NCBI GenBank assembly: GCA_038042445.1
Contig: JBBTED010000074.1
Span: 1-27,103, forward strand
Length of the DNA: 27,103 nucleotides
Source: Candidatus Firestoneibacteriota bacterium
GTDB taxonomy: Bacteria; Oederibacteriota; D2-FULL-39-29; JBBTED01
Direction: 5' to 3'
A program made the translations under genes and the position numbers. A model generated the notes under the pieces. It saw nothing but the letters and a program-made list of their open reading frames with translations. It made no database searches and was not told where the DNA came from. Below, piece after piece: positions 911-20,036 of the stretch (position 1 is the stretch's first letter; each line of letters starts with the position of its first letter).

Positions 911-1103
911 ATAGCCGCCCGCCTAGGCGAGCGGTATTATTTTTTACCATTTTTTCCACAGGCTAAAGAGCCTGTGTCAAAAGGCGTCATTCTGAGGCAG
1001 TAGCCGAAGAATCTCGCTTTAAAGCCCTTTAAAAACGAGATCCTTCACTGCGTTCAGGATGACAAAATAGGGTTTTGACACAAGCTCTAAAACCTGCGAC
1101 TAC
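911..1103. repeat. GTAG-type REP doublet (REPIN-like), right-hand REP interrupted by a MITE
   Basis: Hairpin ATAGCCGCCCGCC-TA-GGCGAGCGG at 911-934. The opposed REP reconstructs on the minus strand as GTAGTCGCAGGT-TTTA-GCCTGTGG (956-967 plus 1092-1103) once 968-1091 is removed. Confidence 0.75.
968..1087 (-). mobile_element. 120-bp MITE, copy 1, carrying an internal GTCA-type palindrome (986-1063)
   Basis: Terminal inverted repeats GAGCCTGTGTCAAAA / TTTTGACACAAGCTC, flanked by direct TAAA at 964-967 and 1088-1091. Aligns end to end with the reverse complement of 5771-5914. Confidence 0.85.
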
Positions 1104-1151
1104 CTTTACGATACAGTCTAAATCATCGGTTTTTCCTTTTGTTTCCTTCTT

Positions 1152-3008
1152 TCATAAAACTTTTTTTTGCATTTTTTTATCAGACCCAGGACCCATACTT
1201 GGCCTTATTGGGGACCATGATTTTCCTGAAAAACATCCAGCCCATTCTTTTTTATTCTGCGAAATCTGATTTGACCTTGGAATAATAGGTAACCTAATAT
1301 ATGAAGCATACTTACTATTATGAAATACTGTCTGAAAAGCGGGTTTAAGTATTTTATCAAAACCAAATATCCCCCCTGTATTTGGATTACGGTCAAATCG
1401 TGGAAAGTTACTACTTGAAATTTCAACACGAATTGAATGTCCTTTTTTAAACACATTACTTGTTGCTATAAGATCAATTATGTACTGGTAAACTTTTCCA
1501 GGCTTTATTAGTTTTTCTCTAATTAAAGATTCTCTATACCTTGCCCGTATAATACCATCTGTTAAATTTCGTGCATATCCAGAAGGATAAACATCTATAA
1601 GCTTACCTGTAAAGTCTGTATCTAACGCTGAAGACGTAGCAAAAAGTATTATAGTAATTTCTCCTGTTACCTCTATATCTTCCTTTAATACTTCACTAGT
1701 GTATACAAGAACATCTTCTCTTGTTTCCATTTCTCTTTGATCAAAAGCACCTCCACAAACCGCTCCTGACCAGCAACAAAGTCCACCACCTTTTGTAGGA
1801 ACTGGATTAATAGGATTGTATAAATAATTGTCTGGAGGTTCATTTGCTATGGGCTTCTCTGGACTTAAATATCCATCGCCATAGAGACTATTTGCACATC
1901 CTCTGCTGTGAAAATAATAATTAACATATCTTGTACGAGATAATGGCCATTCTTTTTCTTCTCTCCAATAATTCTCTCCCATTACAAATATAAGCACAGG
2001 TGGTTCATCTGCAATACCATTATCAATATCTTTGAGCCAATAATCAAACCAACGAATTTGCAACCCATCTAAATCAAAAAATGCAGGATTTGTTACTGCT
2101 CCAAAATTTACTTCGCCTACAACATTACTTACAGGTACACTATGATGCCATGGACCAATGATTATTTTCTGATTTCTTCTTACCTGAGATGTTTTTCCAT
2201 ATTCACGCATACCAACAAAATTATGTAGTGTCCCACCAAGAAAAATATCATACCAACCACCAAGATTATAAGCAGGAACTGTTATATTCTGATATTTTTT
2301 TTCTATATCCCATTTTCTCCAGTAATCATCATTATTTGGATGAGAAAGCCAATCATAATAGTAAGCAGCTCCATTTCTAAAAATTGGGATTTCATTTAAT
2401 GGTAGAAATTTAAACCATTCACACATTTTATCTATAGCCAACATAAGAGCGCTATGTTCTTTTTTAGCTTTGGAATTAAAATACGCTTGTTTATTTAATG
2501 TATCCGGCGCAAGAATAGGTAATATCCAACTGATGTTAAATCCTAAAGCAAATGCTCCTCCCTGATATGTCCAACCATTGTAACATTGAGATGAAGTCAA
2601 GCTTGGGAAAATTGCTTTTAAATGTGGAGGAGATGCAATAGCTGCAAGCCATTGTGTCATTCCAAAATACGATACACCATACATTCCTACTTTGCCATTA
2701 CACCATTTTTGGGAAGCAACCCACTCTACAGTATCATATCCATCATCTGCTTCATAAGAAAAAGGATAAAAAATTCCTTCAGAAGCATAACGACCTCTTG
2801 TATCCTGAATAACCACCACATATCCTTCTCTTGCTGCTCTAATAGGGTCCAAAGCAGGATAACTAATAAGAGGATTGCTTTTGTTATAAGGCATACGACA
2901 AAGCAAAGCTGGGCACTTTTCTCCCTCAGGAGAATAAATATCAGCATAAAGTATTACTCCATCTCTCATACGAATTGGAACATCTTTTTTTATTACTACA
3001 TTTGTCAT
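1152..3008 (-). CDS. CocE/NonD family serine hydrolase (peptidase S15-like)
   Basis: MRDGV-LYADIY, QDTRGRYASEG, nucleophile motif GVSYFG, GGWYD, IGPWHH, C-terminal SSSNFPRFDRNPNTG. Start placed at ATG 3008, which forms an ATGA overlap with the upstream stop. Confidence 0.93.
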   Translation of the reverse strand: MTNVVIKKDVPIRMRDGVILYADIYSPEGEKCPALLCRMPYNKSNPLISYPALDPIRAAREGYVVVIQDTRGRYASEGIFYPFSYEADDGYDTVEWVASQKWCNGKVGMYGVSYFGMTQWLAAIASPPHLKAIFPSLTSSQCYNGWTYQGGAFALGFNISWILPILAPDTLNKQAYFNSKAKKEHSALMLAIDKMCEWFKFLPLNEIPIFRNGAAYYYDWLSHPNNDDYWRKWDIEKKYQNITVPAYNLGGWYDIFLGGTLHNFVGMREYGKTSQVRRNQKIIIGPWHHSVPVSNVVGEVNFGAVTNPAFFDLDGLQIRWFDYWLKDIDNGIADEPPVLIFVMGENYWREEKEWPLSRTRYVNYYFHSRGCANSLYGDGYLSPEKPIANEPPDNYLYNPINPVPTKGGGLCCWSGAVCGGAFDQREMETREDVLVYTSEVLKEDIEVTGEITIILFATSSALDTDFTGKLIDVYPSGYARNLTDGIIRARYRESLIREKLIKPGKVYQYIIDLIATSNVFKKGHSIRVEISSSNFPRFDRNPNTGGIFGFDKILKPAFQTVFHNSKYASYIRLPIIPRSNQISQNKKEWAGCFSGKSWSPIRPSMGPGSDKKMQKKVL

Positions 3009-4714
3009 ATTTTGTATTTTCCCCACATATCTTTTATTTTTTTGTATGCTTTATCAGAAATTGAACTGCCATCTATAAGATGAGTAGCATAAAATATATG
3101 AGGCACACACCCTAATGAAATATCCATCTCAAGCTGAGACAACCATTCGGCTTCACTTTTATTTCCTTCGTTATTTACCTCTGTATTTAAAAGACAGTGT
3201 GGCAAAGTTATACGACTAATCCCAATTAATTCCTTTAAAACATCAACAATATTAAGTTTATCTATTCTTGGTGTTACTAAACAAGTAACCATATCAGCAA
3301 AATGCGAAAAATATGGATTCGCAATTACTGTTATTATTAAAGCATCTTTTTTCGCTTTTTTGGCTTCTTCATAGTAAATTCTTAAACTATTTTTTAAAAG
3401 CTCTGCGCCCCAAATCTCACCATAAGTTTTTAATCTTTCATCAGTTCTTAATACTTCACCAGAAATAAATCCATAGTTATATTCAGGATATCTCATACCA
3501 AAACCATAAAGGTCATAAACTTTCTTTTCAGATGGAAAACCTACTGCAGTACCTACTTTTAGGCCATCTGCATTAAGACAGTTTTTTTCATTAGATAACA
3601 TATAATGAACCAATCTTTTTAATCTTTTTAAATATGCTGGATTACTTGTATCAACTGTCATTGGTTTTTTACCTCTGTTTATACATTCTTTATTAGGTAT
3701 TCCACCTATACTCCAGACAGATGGCCATAAAATAACCTTTTGGCCTTTTGCATGGCATTTATCAATAAAGCCACGCATATCAGGCCATTTACCTTTATCT
3801 ACTACCTGCTCTCCATAGTAAAGCTGCCAACCATCATCTATTATTATCGTTGATGGAATAATTCCTTTATCCTCAAGAATTTTTAGCCAAGTTTCGTAAT
3901 TGTATTGTGTGCAATACACTGAAGGAGATATTGAAGGATGAATCCATTCCTTTCCACAATAATACATTTGTTCACCAAAACCACAAAACATTGGCTTCTT
4001 CCACCATTGATATATTTTCGTATCCTTAGGAAAACTAACATACTTGTGATAAACCAACCATTCTATGAATTTCCTATATACTTCATACTTTTTATCTGCT
4101 TGTGAAAACTGCATAATTAAATGTGGACTCTCCCAACTCTTTATAATCTTAGTATGGCCTTCATAGTCTAAATTTAGATGAAATTGTCCTTTTTTATGCT
4201 CAAACTGAAAATCAGCAAAAGTATATTCTCCATCTTCAATAGCCAAACCAAAACTTATCCAATTATTATTTTTAAACTTTGCTAAATAGCATATTGGTGC
4301 ACACTGCCTCTCTGCTTGTTGTTCAACACAACTTACTTCACTAAAATCACCTTTTGAAGATATAAATTCATCTTTAAAAAACCCTCCGAAAAATTTACAT
4401 TCTCCTATTTCACCTTGCCCTTTAATCTGAAAATAAAATTCAATTGAATCTTCGTAACATCTGAATACATAGCATTTCTCATCCCATATATTACTTTTTT
4501 CACTAATAGAAATTTGAAGAACACCATTTGCAAGCTTTTCTATCACTGGTTTTCCAAGTTTTTGACATAAATCACTCTTTGTTAATTTATCGCATTGTGA
4601 TATTAAAGATAATTCCATAGGTTGGATAGCTTTACTACCAAAAGGAAATATTATAACTTTCCTCTTTTCAAAATCCAAAACAAACTTATAATCCCTCTTG
4701 CAAATTTCCGTCAT
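3005..4714 (-). CDS. GH31/GH36-like TIM-barrel protein, apparently lacking canonical catalytic Asp residues
   Basis: IIIDDGWQ, KWPDMRGFIDKCHAKGQKVILW, D-x-SNP and ADGLK motifs of clan GH-D/GH31 barrels. Start ATG 4714 follows an AGGAGG SD. Confidence 0.75.
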   Translation of the reverse strand: MTEICKRDYKFVLDFEKRKVIIFPFGSKAIQPMELSLISQCDKLTKSDLCQKLGKPVIEKLANGVLQISISEKSNIWDEKCYVFRCYEDSIEFYFQIKGQGEIGECKFFGGFFKDEFISSKGDFSEVSCVEQQAERQCAPICYLAKFKNNNWISFGLAIEDGEYTFADFQFEHKKGQFHLNLDYEGHTKIIKSWESPHLIMQFSQADKKYEVYRKFIEWLVYHKYVSFPKDTKIYQWWKKPMFCGFGEQMYYCGKEWIHPSISPSVYCTQYNYETWLKILEDKGIIPSTIIIDDGWQLYYGEQVVDKGKWPDMRGFIDKCHAKGQKVILWPSVWSIGGIPNKECINRGKKPMTVDTSNPAYLKRLKRLVHYMLSNEKNCLNADGLKVGTAVGFPSEKKVYDLYGFGMRYPEYNYGFISGEVLRTDERLKTYGEIWGAELLKNSLRIYYEEAKKAKKDALIITVIANPYFSHFADMVTCLVTPRIDKLNIVDVLKELIGISRITLPHCLLNTEVNNEGNKSEAEWLSQLEMDISLGCVPHIFYATHLIDGSSISDKAYKKIKDMWGKYKI

Positions 4715-4748
4715 TTTAAAACCTCCTCTATTTATACTCCTATTTATA

Positions 4749-4777
4749 AATATGCTTAATAATGTGTATTTTGTCAA
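4749..4777 (-). promoter_or_regulatory. Sigma70-type promoter for the GH-like/CocE genes
   Basis: TTGACA (4777-4772), 17-bp spacer, CATATT (4754-4749). Confidence 0.6.
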
Positions 4778-4809
4778 TGGACATTCTGCGGTTTCGTGTG
4801 GACTTTTTG
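4778..4809 (-). promoter_or_regulatory. Putative AraC-family operator (tandem direct repeat)
   Basis: CAAAAAGTCCA and CAGAATGTCCA repeated at exactly 21-bp spacing, the second abutting the -35 box; adjacent to the AraC gene. Confidence 0.5.
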
Positions 4810-4832
4810 AAACTGCTAATCGCAACACATTT

Positions 4833-5729
4833 TTAGGAATTATTTGAATTATGCCCGCTAACTGAAATGAGTTTTTCGCGATATTTACCTGGTGTTACAC
4901 CTGTATTTTTTTTAAATATTCTGTGAAAATAGTATGGGTCATTATAACCTACTTCTGATGCAATAGATGAAATTTTCTTTTTAAAATTTTTAAGCAGATT
5001 TTTTGCGATTTCTATTTTAATTTTTGTTAAATATTGTATTGGTGAAGAACCTATTTCTTTTCTGAAGAGTGATGAGATATGCTGTGGTGATAAATGAAAT
5101 TTATTTGATAATTCTATATCGCTAAATTGTTTTTTGTAATTTTTCTTAATGTATTTACACATTTCCATTACAATGTTTTTTTGTAAATTTTTATTTAGCA
5201 TTATGGTGGAAGAGAAAATTTCATTTCGGACATGCAAAAATCTATATATTTCAATTAGCAAATTAATCAAATATGATTTTATTTTTAGTGTATAACCTGT
5301 TTTTTTTACAACCGCCTCATCAAGTATATTTTGAAAAATATCGCCTATTTCCCTTTCTGGAATAATATGTATTTTTGTTGGAAATTTAAAAATTTCATCT
5401 AATGTATGCATCTTGTTTTCTTTAGATATTCTTATTGTTATAAAAACTAATTCAAAGGGATCAGATAAATCGCAAACCTCATAATGTTCTTCATACGGTT
5501 TAACAACAAAAAGATCCCCTGGTTCCATATTAAATTTTTTACCTTCCAAATAATATTCCCCTTTTCCATCCACAACAAAGCAAAATTCGTATACATTATC
5601 CTTATGCACAGCAATTCCTGATGTCCATTTGTCTTTTTTTTCTGCTAAATGGATATGTTGTAGTTCTATGTTCATGCTAAAAAGTATTTTTTTGAGTCTG
5701 TCTATCTCAAATTTATATATGTGTATCAT
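4833..5729 (-). CDS. AraC-family transcriptional regulator (cupin sensor plus double HTH)
   Basis: N-terminal cupin (H-x-x-x-x-YE...PGDLF...H); C-terminal IASEVGYNDPYYFHRIFKKNTGVTPGKYR signature. Confidence 0.95.
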   Translation of the reverse strand: MIHIYKFEIDRLKKILFSMNIELQHIHLAEKKDKWTSGIAVHKDNVYEFCFVVDGKGEYYLEGKKFNMEPGDLFVVKPYEEHYEVCDLSDPFELVFITIRISKENKMHTLDEIFKFPTKIHIIPEREIGDIFQNILDEAVVKKTGYTLKIKSYLINLLIEIYRFLHVRNEIFSSTIMLNKNLQKNIVMEMCKYIKKNYKKQFSDIELSNKFHLSPQHISSLFRKEIGSSPIQYLTKIKIEIAKNLLKNFKKKISSIASEVGYNDPYYFHRIFKKNTGVTPGKYREKLISVSGHNSNNS

Positions 5730-5736
5730 AAGTATA

Positions 5737-5745
5737 ATTATATCA
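5737..5745 (-). promoter_or_regulatory. Extended -10 promoter for the AraC gene (likely leaderless)
   Basis: TGATATAAT followed by 7 nt and then ATG 5729; no SD. Confidence 0.55.
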
Positions 5746-5754
5746 TATTTTTAT

Positions 5755-5959
5755 GTAGGGCAAGGCTTTAGAATCTGTGCCAAAACTCCATTTTGTCATA
5801 CTGAACACATTCGTTTTACTCAGTGTAAACTCCGTGAAGGATCTCGTTTTTAAAAGACTTTTAAACGAGATTCTTCGGCTATCGCCTCAGAATGACAGCT
5901 TTTGGCACAAGCTCTTTAGCCTTGCGAATATAAAATGCAAACCTAAAGGTTTGCCCTAC
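5755..5959. repeat. GTAG-type REP doublet, left REP interrupted by a MITE
   Basis: GTAGGGCAAGGC-TTTA-[MITE]-TTTA-GCCTTGC, plus the opposed intact REP GCAAACCTAAAGGTTTGCCCTAC (5937-5959). Confidence 0.85.
5771..5914 (+). mobile_element. 144-bp MITE, copy 2 (copy 1 plus 24 bp)
   Basis: Terminal inverted repeats GAATCTGTGCCAAAA / TTTTGGCACAAGCTC; TTTA duplicated at 5767-5770 and 5915-5918; internal GTCA...GAAGGATCT / AGATTCTTCGG...CAGAATGAC palindrome. Confidence 0.85.
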
Positions 5960-5964
5960 AAAAT

Positions 5965-6963
5965 TCAACATTTATTAACACTTTCATAAAATAGCAAAAT
6001 ATCAGAAATTGTTGTTTCTTCTGCAATAACGACTTTATGTTTATTGCCAAGTGGTGAAGAAATACGTGGGTCACTATGGTTTTTCAAAAATATAGCAAGA
6101 ACAAAAACAGACATACCAGCAGCTATATGCATAGGACCTGTATCATTTGTAATAAAAACATTACATCGTTCAACTAAAGCAGCAAATTGTCTTAAACTTG
6201 TAGAAGGAGCCAATATCAGCTTATGACTAAGTTTTGAAATCAAATTATTTGCAATTTCCTCTTCACCTGGTCCCCAAAAAACTAAAATTTTAGGATTATT
6301 ATCTTTTTGCAAAATTGCATCTGCAAGTTTTGAAAAATTGTCTACACCCCACATTTTATATGATGCACTTGCACCTGGATTAACTCCAATTAAAATATCG
6401 TTTTCATTTATTCCAGCATTTTTCAAAAACTCATCTGCATATTTTTTGTCTTCATTAGTAAATTTAATTTTTAAATCGTCAGTTTCACATTTAACATCAA
6501 TAGCTCGTAATAATGTGAAATATCGTTCAACATCATGACGCACACCTTTTATTGGTGCTACCTTAATGTTATAGAACATAGATTTCAAACCATCAGAATA
6601 ACCAATTCTATTTTTTGCACCTGTTAAAAAAGATAATACTGCTGTTTCCAGAAAATCCTGAAAATCCAAAACAATATCAAATTTCTTTTTTCGCAAATAA
6701 AGTAGTGCTTTAAAAATTTCGCGTATTGCTTTTAGCTTTGGCAAATTTCTCCATCTTTTTTTATCCCATACAATAATTTCATCAAAAGTATCATCTTTTT
6801 CAATCAAATTAAACGTTCTGGAATCAACTAACATAGTAATAGAAAGGTTGCGATATGTTTTTTTTAGTGAACGAACTGCAGGTAATGTTAATACTACATC
6901 TCCAACTCTATGAAAACGTATTATTAAAACTTTTTTTGAACTTTTAAAGTAATTGGTGTCCAT
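5965..6963 (-). CDS. Glycosyltransferase family 9 (LPS heptosyltransferase-like)
   Basis: LIIR...GDVVLT-P, NPGAS...K-W, NDTGPMHIAA motifs. Confidence 0.92.
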   Translation of the reverse strand: MDTNYFKSSKKVLIIRFHRVGDVVLTLPAVRSLKKTYRNLSITMLVDSRTFNLIEKDDTFDEIIVWDKKRWRNLPKLKAIREIFKALLYLRKKKFDIVLDFQDFLETAVLSFLTGAKNRIGYSDGLKSMFYNIKVAPIKGVRHDVERYFTLLRAIDVKCETDDLKIKFTNEDKKYADEFLKNAGINENDILIGVNPGASASYKMWGVDNFSKLADAILQKDNNPKILVFWGPGEEEIANNLISKLSHKLILAPSTSLRQFAALVERCNVFITNDTGPMHIAAGMSVFVLAIFLKNHSDPRISSPLGNKHKVVIAEETTISDILLFYESVNKC

Positions 6964-6967
6964 TTTT

Positions 6968-7164
6968 GTAAATTCTCACTGAACACCATTCCATTTCCTT
7001 GTCATTCCCGCATATAGTAAGCGGGAATCCAGTGACTTTAAAATCCTTTAAAATTAAAGCCTCTGGATTCCCGATAAAAGCATTCGGGAATGACAACCTA
7101 AAATATAACCATTATGACACAGTTTGCTTTCGCAAAAATGACATGGTGTTTACTGAGTATTTAT
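6968..7164. repeat. Nested palindromic element: outer 22-bp inverted repeat, GTCATTCCC/GGGAATGAC (dRS3-like) doublet at 6999-7096, orphan MITE-like terminus
   Basis: 6968-6989 vs 7143-7164 are inverted repeats (18/22). Two ATTCCC-N13-GGGAAT hairpins. TTATGACACAGT at 7112-7123. Confidence 0.75.
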
Positions 7165-8159
7165 CCTTTTTTAAACGCCTTATCAACAGCTTCCAAAACA
7201 TCAGTTACTGTTATTTCTTCTAAGCATTCCAAAGTATTACATTTTACTTTATTACAAGGCTGACAAGATAAACCTTTCCAAACAATATGATGTCTTGAAT
7301 CATCAGGTGGATTCCATGCTTTAGGATCTGTAGCACCGTATATTGTTACTGTTGGAACATCTAAAGCAACAGCAATATGTTTAGGAGAAGAATCATTTGT
7401 AATTAGTAAATCCAATTTTTGAATTATACCCATAAGTTGCCGTATATTTGTAGGTGGAATAATAATACTTATACCTTTTGTTGAATTTAAAATATCTTTA
7501 GCTAATTTTTCTTCACCTGGACCCCACAAAATAAAAATCTTTGCATTATATTTTTGAACTATACTCTGTATTAAAGAAATATAGTTCTCTTTTTTCCATA
7601 CTTTTGTAGCCCAGCTACTTGCAGGATTTACACCAATAAATAAATCTTTTTTTTCATTGGTATATTGGGAGAAAAACTTACTCGCGAAATCTTTCTCGTA
7701 TTGATTTAATTTTAGGACTAAATCAATGTTTACCGTATCAATTCCAAGTGTTTTAATTATATCTATATTTGGACAAACTGCATATTCAATCTTTTCAGAA
7801 CCTTTGACCTTAATATTATAACAAAACCTGCGAACTCTAATATTGTGTCCTATTCTTTTTTTAGCACCACTTATCAAAGTTAGAATTGCACTTCTAGGAT
7901 TACCAAATAAATCTATAGCTATGTCAAATTTTTTATCTTTTATAGATTTCAAAAATTTAATTTTCTCATATAAATTCAAATTTTTATCTAATGTTATTAT
8001 CTCATCAATATACGGATTTTCTTTTAATACTTCAGTACCGGGTTTCTCTGTTAATACTGAAATAAAACTATCAGGATATTTATTTTTAACAGATTTTATT
8101 GCAGGTGTAGAAAGCAAAACATCCCCTATACCGCGTAATTTGATTATTAGAATTTTCAT
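7161..8159 (-). CDS. Glycosyltransferase family 9 (WaaF-like heptosyltransferase)
   Basis: IKLRGIGDVLLSTP, NDSSPKHIAVAL, C-terminal CQPC..C...C. Confidence 0.92.
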   Translation of the reverse strand: MKILIIKLRGIGDVLLSTPAIKSVKNKYPDSFISVLTEKPGTEVLKENPYIDEIITLDKNLNLYEKIKFLKSIKDKKFDIAIDLFGNPRSAILTLISGAKKRIGHNIRVRRFCYNIKVKGSEKIEYAVCPNIDIIKTLGIDTVNIDLVLKLNQYEKDFASKFFSQYTNEKKDLFIGVNPASSWATKVWKKENYISLIQSIVQKYNAKIFILWGPGEEKLAKDILNSTKGISIIIPPTNIRQLMGIIQKLDLLITNDSSPKHIAVALDVPTVTIYGATDPKAWNPPDDSRHHIVWKGLSCQPCNKVKCNTLECLEEITVTDVLEAVDKAFKKG

Positions 8160-8177
8160 ATAAAAATATCATTAAAT

Positions 8178-8235
8178 TGTCATGCCGAACTTGTTTCGGC
8201 ATCTAATTAGACCCTGAAACAAGTTCAGGGTGACA
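8178..8235. repeat. GTCA-type short palindromic doublet, copy 1
   Basis: TGTCATGCCGAACTTGTTTCGGCATCT ... AGACCCTGAAACAAGTTCAGGGTGACA; the second half is identical to 17155-17181. Confidence 0.85.
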
Positions 8236-8238
8236 TTT

Positions 8239-9261
8239 TTATTTTCCTTTCAACATTTTCTCTACTGCTAACAATACATCATCAACAGAAATAGCTTTCA
8301 TACAATCTTGCTTTTCGCAAACATCCAAATTACAAGGCCAGCAGGACACTTGTTTTTTAAATGCAATATGTTTAGATTTATCATACGGAAACCATATATC
8401 TGGTTCTCCAGGACCAAATATTGCAATTGTTGGAACATTCAAAGCAACTGAAATATGCATAGGACCTGCATCATTTGTTATAAACAAATTACATCTTTCA
8501 ATTACTGATGATAAATATTTTATATCAAGATTATTCACACAAACTATCTTTTTCTTCATAAGATTAGAAATTTCATTGGCAATTCCTTTTTCTTTCGGGC
8601 CTTCAAAAATAATTATTTCTGAATTATATTTGTCCACAAGTATATCAGCAAGTAATGCAAATTTTTCTTTTAACCAACGCTTAGCTTGCCATGTTGCTCC
8701 TGGATTTATACCAATTATTTTTTTATTAATATCTATCTTTGACTCTGCAAGAAAATCTTTTGCATTTTTTTTCTCTTCATCAGACAAATATATAGTAGTA
8801 TTACAACAATTAGTATCCAGATTAGCATCAATTGCATTCAAAACATTTAAATATACATCTATTGCTGTATTTCTACTTCCTGAATCTTTAACAACAATAT
8901 TGTAAAAATTTCTGCGAACAGGAAAATTAAATCCTACTCTATATTTCGCATTAGTTAAATACGCCAGTATCGCACTTCTGGGATTACCAAATAAATCTAT
9001 AACAGCATCAAATTTTTTATCCCGCAGAGTATTTATAACTTTTAACATCTGAAATAAGTTTGCATTTCGCGGAATTTGGATTAATTCATTTAATAACGGA
9101 TTACCACTTAAAACTTGACCATACCCTTCTTCAAATAAGTATGCTATGTGAGAATCAGGATAATTTTTTCGTAAATTAGCAATAAAAGGTGTAGTTAATA
9201 CAATATCACCAATAAATCGTAAACGTATTATTAAAATTTTTTTGGCGGATGTAATTTTCAC
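8239..9261 (-). CDS. Glycosyltransferase family 9 (WaaF-like heptosyltransferase II)
   Basis: IRLRFIGDIVLTTP, NPGATWQAKRW, NDAGPMHISVAL, CWPC..C...C; GTG start. Confidence 0.92.
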   Translation of the reverse strand: MKITSAKKILIIRLRFIGDIVLTTPFIANLRKNYPDSHIAYLFEEGYGQVLSGNPLLNELIQIPRNANLFQMLKVINTLRDKKFDAVIDLFGNPRSAILAYLTNAKYRVGFNFPVRRNFYNIVVKDSGSRNTAIDVYLNVLNAIDANLDTNCCNTTIYLSDEEKKNAKDFLAESKIDINKKIIGINPGATWQAKRWLKEKFALLADILVDKYNSEIIIFEGPKEKGIANEISNLMKKKIVCVNNLDIKYLSSVIERCNLFITNDAGPMHISVALNVPTIAIFGPGEPDIWFPYDKSKHIAFKKQVSCWPCNLDVCEKQDCMKAISVDDVLLAVEKMLKGK

Positions 9262-17122: not shown

Positions 17123-17181
17123 TGTCATGCTGAATTTATTTCAGCATCTCTTTTAGACCCTGAAACAAGTTCAGGGTGACA
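17123..17181. repeat. GTCA-type short palindromic doublet, copy 2
   Basis: TGTCATGCTGAATTTATTTCAGCATCT ... AGACCCTGAAACAAGTTCAGGGTGACA; homologous to 8178-8235. Confidence 0.85.
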
Positions 17182-17192
17182 ATATTCTATCA

Positions 17193-19399: not shown

Positions 19400-19933
19400 T
19401 TAACCTGCAAATATTTTATTATAATAGGGATCCTTTCGTTTTGTGTTATTATCCCTGTTCTCTATATCTAAATGCCATTGCAAAGAATTGTTTGCAATGT
19501 ATTCTCTGATACGCAATAATGACGTTTCATTCCGGATAATATGGTCATAAAATGATTTTTGCCAACGAAATTCCGTAAAACCTGCTTTATGAATCAATTT
19601 TGATGATGTTGTTTTAAATGCCCCGACCAATTCCGGCAACGGTTTTATCTTCTGTAGGGAACGGTCGCGACCGTTCCCTACAATTGAAATTATGCCATGA
19701 AAATGATTTGGCATAATCACATATGCATCCAATTCTACATATGTATATTGTTCTGCCAACCAAACCCATTGTTTTTGCGTTATTTCACCCCATTCATTTA
19801 AAATCATCCTGCTATCTTCAACCTTACCAAACCATTCTATCCTATTCCATGTACAAACTGTAATAAAATAATATCCTACCTGTGAATAATCATATTTTCG
19901 CAAACGTGTTAATTTACGTTCAGTTGTTTTCAT
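19400..19933 (-). mobile_element. REP-associated tyrosine (HUH/Y1) transposase, RAYT/TnpA-REP
   Basis: RLxxYDYS-x-x-GYYFITVC, MPNHFH (HUH), FK, WQKSFYDHIIRN, YIxNN; associated with GTAG palindromes. Confidence 0.92.
19653..19682. repeat. Perfect 30-bp GTAG REP palindrome inside the RAYT coding sequence
   Basis: TGTAGGGAACGGTCGCGACCGTTCCCTACA is its own reverse complement; read in frame as VGNGRDRSLQ. Confidence 0.92.
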
Positions 19934-20008: not shown

Positions 20009-20036
20009 GTAGGGAATGGTCGCGACCATTCCCTAC
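20009..20036. repeat. Perfect 28-bp GTAG REP palindrome between the uvrB stop and RAYT
   Basis: GTAGGGAATGGTCGCGACCATTCCCTAC differs from the internal copy by one compensatory pair (C-G to T-A). Confidence 0.92.

Follow-up and report, generated by a model that had tools for sequence, protein, structure and literature searches.

A Gene-Less Element With IS1182-Type Ends and a REP Doublet as Cargo, Inserted in REP Hairpin Loops of a Candidatus Firestoneibacteriota Genome

Two Split REP Hairpins in the Window

The window, that is the whole stretch of DNA analyzed here (27,103 nucleotides, contig JBBTED010000074.1 of a Candidatus Firestoneibacteriota bacterium), contains two repetitive extragenic palindromes (REPs) with a GTAG tag, each of which is split in its loop by the same kind of short element. 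Both insertion sites lie between co-directional minus-strand genes, and at both the hairpin arms are retained and the loop is duplicated (Table 1); when positions 968–1091 and 5771–5918 are excised, a single hairpin with a GTAG tag and a TTTA loop is restored at each site, as was claimed in an earlier note on this DNA that was prepared without database searches. [quoted passage not shown] No open reading frame (ORF) of at least 100 aa lies over either copy, which agrees with the non-autonomous character proposed in that note. As argued below, this gene-less element of 120–144 bp with IS1182-type ends was probably moved in trans by an IS1182-family DDE transposase, which would recognize a short hairpin or cruciform and join the element ends at the loop edge on each strand, whereby the loop would become duplicated.

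Over aligned columns the two copies show 85% identity, and both face the same way with respect to the GTAG tag; copy 2 is four-layered because of an extra insert of 24 bp. The ends match each other at 14/15 positions in copy 1 and at 12/15 in copy 2, and the left end of copy 2 departs from the consensus given in the earlier note at two positions. The REP restored at copy 1 has a stem of just 5 Watson-Crick pairs together with G-T pairs. GTAG REPs were delimited here by the GTAG tag, a 6–9-bp stem, a short loop, high copy number and occurrence in doublets; the entered types carry the tag, are numerous (about 159 for type I, about 33 for type II) and form doublets. An unbroken partner REP lies near each split REP, so that each window copy entered one half of a REP doublet.

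Copy 1 with its REP, folded as RNA, reaches −71.6 kcal/mol (z −9.2), and copy 2, folded as DNA, −36.9 kcal/mol (z −6.5). No Rfam family reached its gathering score in the window, and promoter and terminator scans gave none inside either element. The copies are, for the host, probably neutral debris in intergenic DNA, by which strong RNA hairpins are added between genes of the same direction. The structures are unlikely to be artefacts of assembly, since all four outer junctions are spanned by contigs of a further run (X2), which shares its study with the possible source run and thus serves as a check of the assembly, not as an independent occurrence.

Table 1. Parts of the two nested elements, in positions of the window.
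Feature	Positions	Strand	Remarks
Partner REP-like hairpin of copy 1	911–934	+	Variant tag, CTAG loop; uninterrupted; head-to-head doublet with the copy-1 split REP; read directly
Copy-1 split GTAG REP, downstream stem arm	956–963	-	
Copy-1 target duplication (4 bp)	964–967	-	REP loop, TTTA on the minus strand (reads TAAA on +)
MITE copy 1	968–1087	-	120 bp, non-coding; one of 17 complete genome copies
Copy-1 terminal inverted repeat	968–982	+	Same sequence as the ends of L101 and L110, two intact IS1182 elements
Copy-1 cargo	986–1063	.	Head-to-head doublet of CGTC/TGTC-tagged REPs, palindromic spacer
Copy-1 second terminal inverted repeat	1073–1087	-	14/15 match to the first
Copy-1 target duplication, other side (4 bp)	1088–1091	-	
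Copy-1 split REP, GTAG tag and upstream stem arm	1092–1103	-	Type I, about 159 intact genome relatives
Copy-2 split REP, GTAG tag and upstream stem arm	5755–5766	+	Type II, about 33 intact relatives
Copy-2 target duplication (4 bp)	5767–5770	+	TTTA loop
MITE copy 2	5771–5914	+	144 bp, long variant (3/17 copies)
Copy-2 left terminal inverted repeat	5771–5785	+	Two changes against the consensus
Copy-2 cargo	5795–5896	.	CGTC/TGTC-type REP doublet
Copy-2 insert (24 bp)	5810–5833	+	Fourth layer, within the first cargo REP's loop
Copy-2 right terminal inverted repeat	5900–5914	-	
Copy-2 target duplication, other side (4 bp)	5915–5918	+	
Copy-2 split REP, downstream stem arm	5919–5925	+	
Partner GTAG REP of copy 2	5937–5959	-	Intact, empty TTTA loop; doublet with the copy-2 split REP

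Copies and Targets in the Genome

The source assembly (G000; 2.81 Mb, 32% G+C, 181 contigs, 90% complete) holds 17 complete copies of the element, 82–98% identical, and at least two one-ended copies. A 4-bp duplication is found at 15 of the 17 (TTTA at 10, GTTA at 2, TGAC, GTAC and TATA at 1 each), and the flanks are non-random, 13 copies being placed in REP-derived loops: nine of these are clean, one is decayed, one has a single REP arm left and two have inverted flanks. Of the other four, two have no hairpin, one is in a weak hairpin and one has a CGTC-type hairpin on either side. Loops of GTAG-tagged hairpins constitute just 422 of the 9,062 non-coding TTTA/TAAA sites genome-wide (4.7%, with a crude ORF mask), and therefore the enrichment in REP loops is real (at least 11/17 copies in GTAG loops, p = 2e-11). 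A preference for GTAG REPs over other hairpins is only marginal (p = 0.03), because they already make up 339 of the 501 perfect 4-nt-loop hairpins of the genome. The loop is GTTA in two of the REP targets, and CGTC loops and CCCC-type palindromes are entered by related elements. Targeting of TTTA loops of REPs, as initially suggested, thus holds as a strong enrichment for GTAG loops but not as a strict rule, the target being hairpin loops in a wider sense.

The copies at C48 and C136 are 98.3% identical and occupy different REP families, so the insertions are independent, in line with the earlier reading, and the copies do not all sit on one REP stem. One REP family was entered in both orientations (C27:5668 and C136). 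The orientation relative to the GTAG tag, the same in both window copies, is not fixed across the family: it is shared by nine complete copies and opposite in two (p = 0.065), one of the latter being a hybrid oriented by its linker alone, and the ratio becomes 9 to 4 when two partial copies, also opposite, are included. A tree of the 17 copies has no grouping by target, and none of its branches is strongly supported. The two inverted-flank copies (C38:6398–6517 and C156:17516–17635) have a tagged REP half on both sides, with the loop and its reverse complement as flanks, and similar flanks were seen at L159, L160, and L066. In such copies a doublet may have lost the DNA that separated its two REPs, either by an adjacent deletion or by recombination between two copies, if C38 and C156 are not simply mis-assembled. 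Mismatched flanks of insertion sequences (ISs) at REPs were attributed to the same two causes (PMC1525189).

On the target side there appears to be a link to HUH enzymes, since REPs of types I and III flank genes that resemble REP-associated tyrosine transposases (RAYTs): a RAYT-like match on C36, readable in part, has type I beside it, and the RAYT in L001 has type III. None of the six RAYT matches was seen to adjoin the type II REP, which copy 2 entered. The window has a RAYT gene of its own at 19400–19933 on the minus strand (PF01797; NF047646 at 64.9 bits, under the cut-off of 80). This gene has its own near-perfect palindromic GTAG REP type, once within the ORF (19654–19681) and once upstream (20009–20036), which differs from the types entered by the MITE. 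Elsewhere in the genome (L004, C63:6898–10164) a RAYT domain lies within an open frame of 1,382 aa in which REPs are read in frame.

IS1182-Type Ends and Their Intact Relatives

The ends of the window MITEs are IS1182-type. Two intact elements from other bacteria, L101 (1,648 bp, with a 472-aa protein that scores 388.8 bits against NF033551) and L110 (1,624 bp, 381.8 bits), both above the cut-off of 270 bits, have perfect ends identical to positions 968–982 (15/15). Because an intact transposase gene of the NF033551 type is enclosed by the identical 15-bp end, the MITE is placed, as a derivative, in the IS1182 family, and what had been a guess about IS1182-like ends is borne out; the full-length transposase with the same ends for which the earlier note proposed a search thus exists in other bacteria, but no intact one was found in this assembly. 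L110 (85% identical), which was retrieved by protein search and not through a REP pattern, lies in a TTTA hairpin loop with a TTTA duplication. The same search gave intact elements with related ends in GTAG-REP loops (L135, NF033551 377.2 bits, with TGAA; L162 and L163, with CATG) and elements in other hairpins (L137, L154). Intact elements of identical length in G081, apparently young, are also placed in hairpin centers.

The 15-bp end pattern has matches in 19 of 99 genomes of the phylum, while its reversed control gave scattered single matches, and the transposase protein is matched in 13 of the 99. In relatives of the same class the end leads into N- and C-terminal parts of IS1182 transposases, and the end in G009 and G012 is near-identical. 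A scan of the genome collection for the end together with a REP arm gave nine loci which, being selected by a pattern that contains a REP, do not test targeting: L101 is one, and the rest are mostly short elements, with five loci in a metagenome-assembled genome (MAG) of Cloacimonadota and one in a Clostridia MAG, the element standing at a type I REP loop and carrying a GTAG doublet where the cargo is readable.

Comparison of 75 end pairs, with identical-flank sites collapsed, gave 49 with a 3- or 4-bp duplication. The length of the duplication tracks the end subtype in MITEs and intact elements alike: ends of the CAAAA type have 21 four-bp and 1 three-bp duplications, and those of the CATAA type 20 three-bp and 7 four-bp ones. 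Among five distinct intact CAAAA-type elements, four have a 4-bp duplication, and those four are in hairpin centers.

A 575-aa transposase-like ORF on the 2,582-bp contig C40 was considered as a driver and rejected, for it is unrelated and matches NF033551 weakly; it may resemble IS1634. In class relatives (L032, L035, L036, L047, L052, and L054) IS1182 ends or MITEs follow half-hairpins with TTAC loops, which are presumably akin to the end hairpins of IS200/IS605.

How the Hairpins May Have Been Entered

The observed ends, duplications, target spectrum and independent insertions, together with the occurrence elsewhere of intact IS1182 elements with the same end and target geometry, are consistent with the following course, in which mobilization in trans, recognition of an extruded hairpin and the cut positions are proposed. 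An IS1182-family transposase supplied in trans would act on the MITE ends and would recognize a short extruded hairpin or cruciform; on either strand the element ends would then be joined to the border of the 4-nt loop, and repair would therefore duplicate the loop. GTAG REPs are entered most often, largely because they are the commonest hairpins with a 4-nt loop in this genome, to which a preference for a C-G loop-closing pair possibly adds. Replacement of the stem-loop, as with IS1272, does not describe the copies, since the hairpin is kept and the loop duplicated, and only the two inverted-flank copies imply loss of DNA between REPs.

Across the sites with a duplication, a stem of at least 6 bp was found at 28 of 49, compared with 1.9% of 20,000 random positions; three of the 49 sites were chosen with a REP-containing pattern, and kin among them are not independent. 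Several further points weigh against hairpin recognition by a transposase acting in trans. No 3- or 4-bp duplication accompanies 26 of the 75 end pairs, some of them spurious pairings. Four of the 17 genome copies are outside GTAG loops, and those at C72, C87, and C121 have little or no stem. L101, despite its identical end, stands in no hairpin and has a duplication of 3 bp. Searches of the 90%-complete assembly with PF05598, PF13751, NF033551, the L101 protein and a panel of 14 proteins from IS1182 loci gave no intact IS1182 gene, and only a broken C-terminal IS1182 remnant with a different end subtype is present, at a contig end (C105). This remnant (C105:3306–3642), a right end with a broken C-terminal frame, lies 14 bp from a MITE. 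Empty REPs at orthologous loci, a check proposed in the earlier note, were not seen in the full contig sets of four out of 11 sequencing runs. A joint of 5771 to 5937 was considered as an empty allele and set aside, as its short side has at most 21 letters and the spacers vary; it is best read as other empty REP doublets.

The main rival is that the transposase responds to a short palindromic consensus of plain duplex DNA, approximately a GC-rich arm, C, four A/T-rich bases and G, and that REPs were entered for containing this word. In its favor, a 5′ C and a 3′ G close the loop at 16 of the 28 sites with a 4-bp duplication, and the duplication is TTTA or TAAA at 13 of the 28, three copies are almost without a stem, and about 60 perfect GTAGGGGC-type REPs, which have a TTTA loop but another closing pair, were never entered by the 17 copies. 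However, this last absence is weak evidence (0/13 in a class with about 18% of GTAG loops), and stems of unrelated sequence were entered, namely GTAG types I–III, CCCC-type palindromes and CGTC loops. The published targets of IS1272 and TnSha1, moreover, have structure in common and not sequence. Readout of a duplex word is held to be unlikely, and recognition of the hairpin is preferred to it.

It might also be argued that insertion was near-random at TTTA-like sites and that copies survive in REPs since they are harmless there. All examined copies appear intergenic, their divergence (82–98% identity) would have given time for loss, and four are outside REP loops. Yet of the non-coding TTTA/TAAA sites about 95% lie outside REP loops, the insertions are exactly at the loop and nowhere else in the REP, and the apparently young elements of G081 are in hairpin centers too, which makes such survivor bias very improbable. 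Spread of a REP-plus-MITE composite with one origin or a few, copied whole thereafter by the RAYT of the REP or by gene conversion, is contradicted for the family as a whole by the C48/C136 pair and by the two orientations within one REP family, as well as by near-identical elements at non-REP sites, the varied duplications and the (weakly supported) tree that is not sorted by target; the biased orientation speaks for it, and it may apply to single pairs only, such as the inverted-flank copies, which are 96.7% identical in the same REP type and may be one copied unit.

The small element, a hairpin target that is defined and L110, whose intact transposase comes with the same end, form a matched set for a behavior that the papers drawn on here describe only in outline. 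One may ask, does a DDE transposase read DNA structure? With that set, the question can be addressed.

REP Doublets as Cargo

The interior of both window copies is a head-to-head heterodimer of REPs with CGTC/TGTC tags; a second REP class is thus carried inside, as had been noticed, but it is a doublet of this type rather than of the GTCA type. The genome has 36 related cores, of which 18 lie near an IS1182-type end and the other 18 are free of one. Three free doublets, 76–78% identical to the cargo, flank a 94-aa ORF on C63, which is recognized as GIY-YIG by a match to PF01541 and is Ssn-like in its layout. The published SRM motif is matched only with 2 mismatches by one of the two heads in each window copy and likewise by the repeats beside the GIY-YIG gene. 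Since relatives of the cargo flank a GIY-YIG gene, the cargo is not shown to be HUH-linked, and the connection of a HUH-mobilized with a DDE-mobilized repeat family put forward in the earlier note appears to stand for the target REPs, of which types I and III flank RAYT-like genes, but not for the cargo.

Short elements with ends of the IS1182 class, from this genome and other loci, number 59 and have 19 interior families. By a tag-pair test, 48 of the 59 carry a tagged head-to-head doublet, compared with 24 of 2,950 shuffles, a count weighted by the family studied here, to which 18 of the 59 belong; a strict hairpin detector, which misses bulged cargo stems, found doublets in 19 of the 59 only. 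Two short elements in relatives, L054 and L083, have none. IS1182 shells may therefore spread repeats that have no transposase of their own. It can be proposed, tentatively, that pairs of IS1182 ends repeatedly package REP doublets and constitute a general, DDE-driven vehicle for palindromic repeats, CGTC/SRM repeats included, which delivers them into the loops of other REPs and so builds nested repeats from three enzyme systems (RAYT for the target, IS1182 for the shell and a GIY-YIG-linked system for the cargo); we regard this wider scheme as possible but somewhat doubtful.

How the cargo entered may be guessed at: REP doublets could have inserted into small remnants of an end pair, which the transposase then amplified. 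Empty shells of 28–49 bp were not found in this genome. Simple internal deletion of a REP-bearing IS is unsupported, because inspection of five intact IS1182 elements by eye showed no REP cores within 170 bp of their ends.

Cargo-like repeats occur in the window outside the MITE as well: free doublets of the CGTC/TGTC type and a single repeat lie between genes at 6999–7096, 8171–8242, and 17153–17186, and the repeat at 7000–7032 matches the published SRM motif exactly. Twelve more short elements of this genome have IS1182 ends and other REP cargos (GTAG, CGTC and mixed doublets): C22:17382, C22:22378, C21:3414, C21:84988, C27:58941, C77:4991, C95:9004, C96:4516, C105:3162, C158:26246, C179:1738, and C179:4045. 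Among them, the subtype with CATAA ends mostly has 3-bp duplications, and three copies are in CGTC loops. Some free doublets of the cargo type share tens of flanking bases in pairs (C27:3036/C81:14004, C142:128/C95:13039, C116:13323/C67:4101, and C141:4438/C73:44) and, judged by these flanks, may belong to larger repeated units with other ends.

Relation to Known Systems

Several components of this picture are already known, namely ISs that target REPs, hairpin targeting by IS1182 members, a MITE that contains a REP and REP dimers within longer palindromes. A 2015 review by Siguier reportedly mentions loop duplication. That review is cited in PMC5678879 and PMC4923244 for palindrome targeting by other IS1182 members. 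IS1272 and TnSha1, IS1182-family elements of staphylococci, target hairpins without a sequence consensus (PMC5678879, PMC4923244); their transposases are of the same family (NF033551) as those of the matching intact elements, and here too the hairpin targets have little sequence consensus. IS1272, however, deletes the stem-loop and makes no duplication, whereas here the hairpin is kept and its loop duplicated, and the window element is a gene-less derivative with REP cargo. A loop-duplicating route was drawn by Wan et al. (Fig 13, pathway c; PMC5678879), and the loop duplication proposed here corresponds to that pathway.

A fixed position of insertion in REPs is shared with ISPsy8, ISRm22, ISPa11, ISPpu9/10, IS1397, and IS621, of which ISPsy8 and ISRm22 enter the symmetry axis of the REP with a short duplication, like the window elements (PMC1525189). 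Unlike the window element, which enters several REP families and other palindromes, these are autonomous members of the IS3, IS4, IS110, IS256, and IS5 families, each bound to the REP of one species. QMITE2 of Coxiella burnetii is likewise a MITE (150–190 bp) with terminal inverted repeats and an internal REP, whose core also occurs free of the shell (PMC5896051). It differs in that the REP inside is of the GTAG type, the duplications are 7–11 bp and of variable sequence, and QMITE2 is itself a target of IS1111; the parts of that paper drawn on mention neither a link to IS1182 nor loop targeting (PMC5896051).

The cargo resembles CGTC REPs and Ssn-related motifs (PMC3733652, PMC11893778) in being a CGTC/TGTC head-to-head heterodimer whose relatives flank a 94-aa GIY-YIG gene, and a GIY-YIG gene with repeats on its flanks is the arrangement that Ssn nucleases are reported to have (PMC11893778). 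Di Nocera et al. described dimers of REPs within longer palindromes in Anabaena and Halothiobacillus (PMC3733652); the parts of these papers drawn on connect such palindromes with no transposase family and describe CGTC repeats as having no dedicated transposase (PMC3733652, PMC11893778). The near-generality of REP doublets in IS1182-ended MITEs bears on a question raised by Di Nocera et al. (2013), namely how CGTC repeats can spread if they have no such enzyme. No publication was found that joins IS1182 ends, a MITE, REP cargo and REP loops, in a search made without most subscription journals, ISfinder and supplements. The most interesting side of the present observations is the possible role of IS1182 shells in spreading repeats of the CGTC type.

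Other Features of the Window

Three tandem paralogs of glycosyltransferase family 9 occupy positions 5965–9261 on the minus strand, and the long direct repeats D1, D2, and D7 are due to them.

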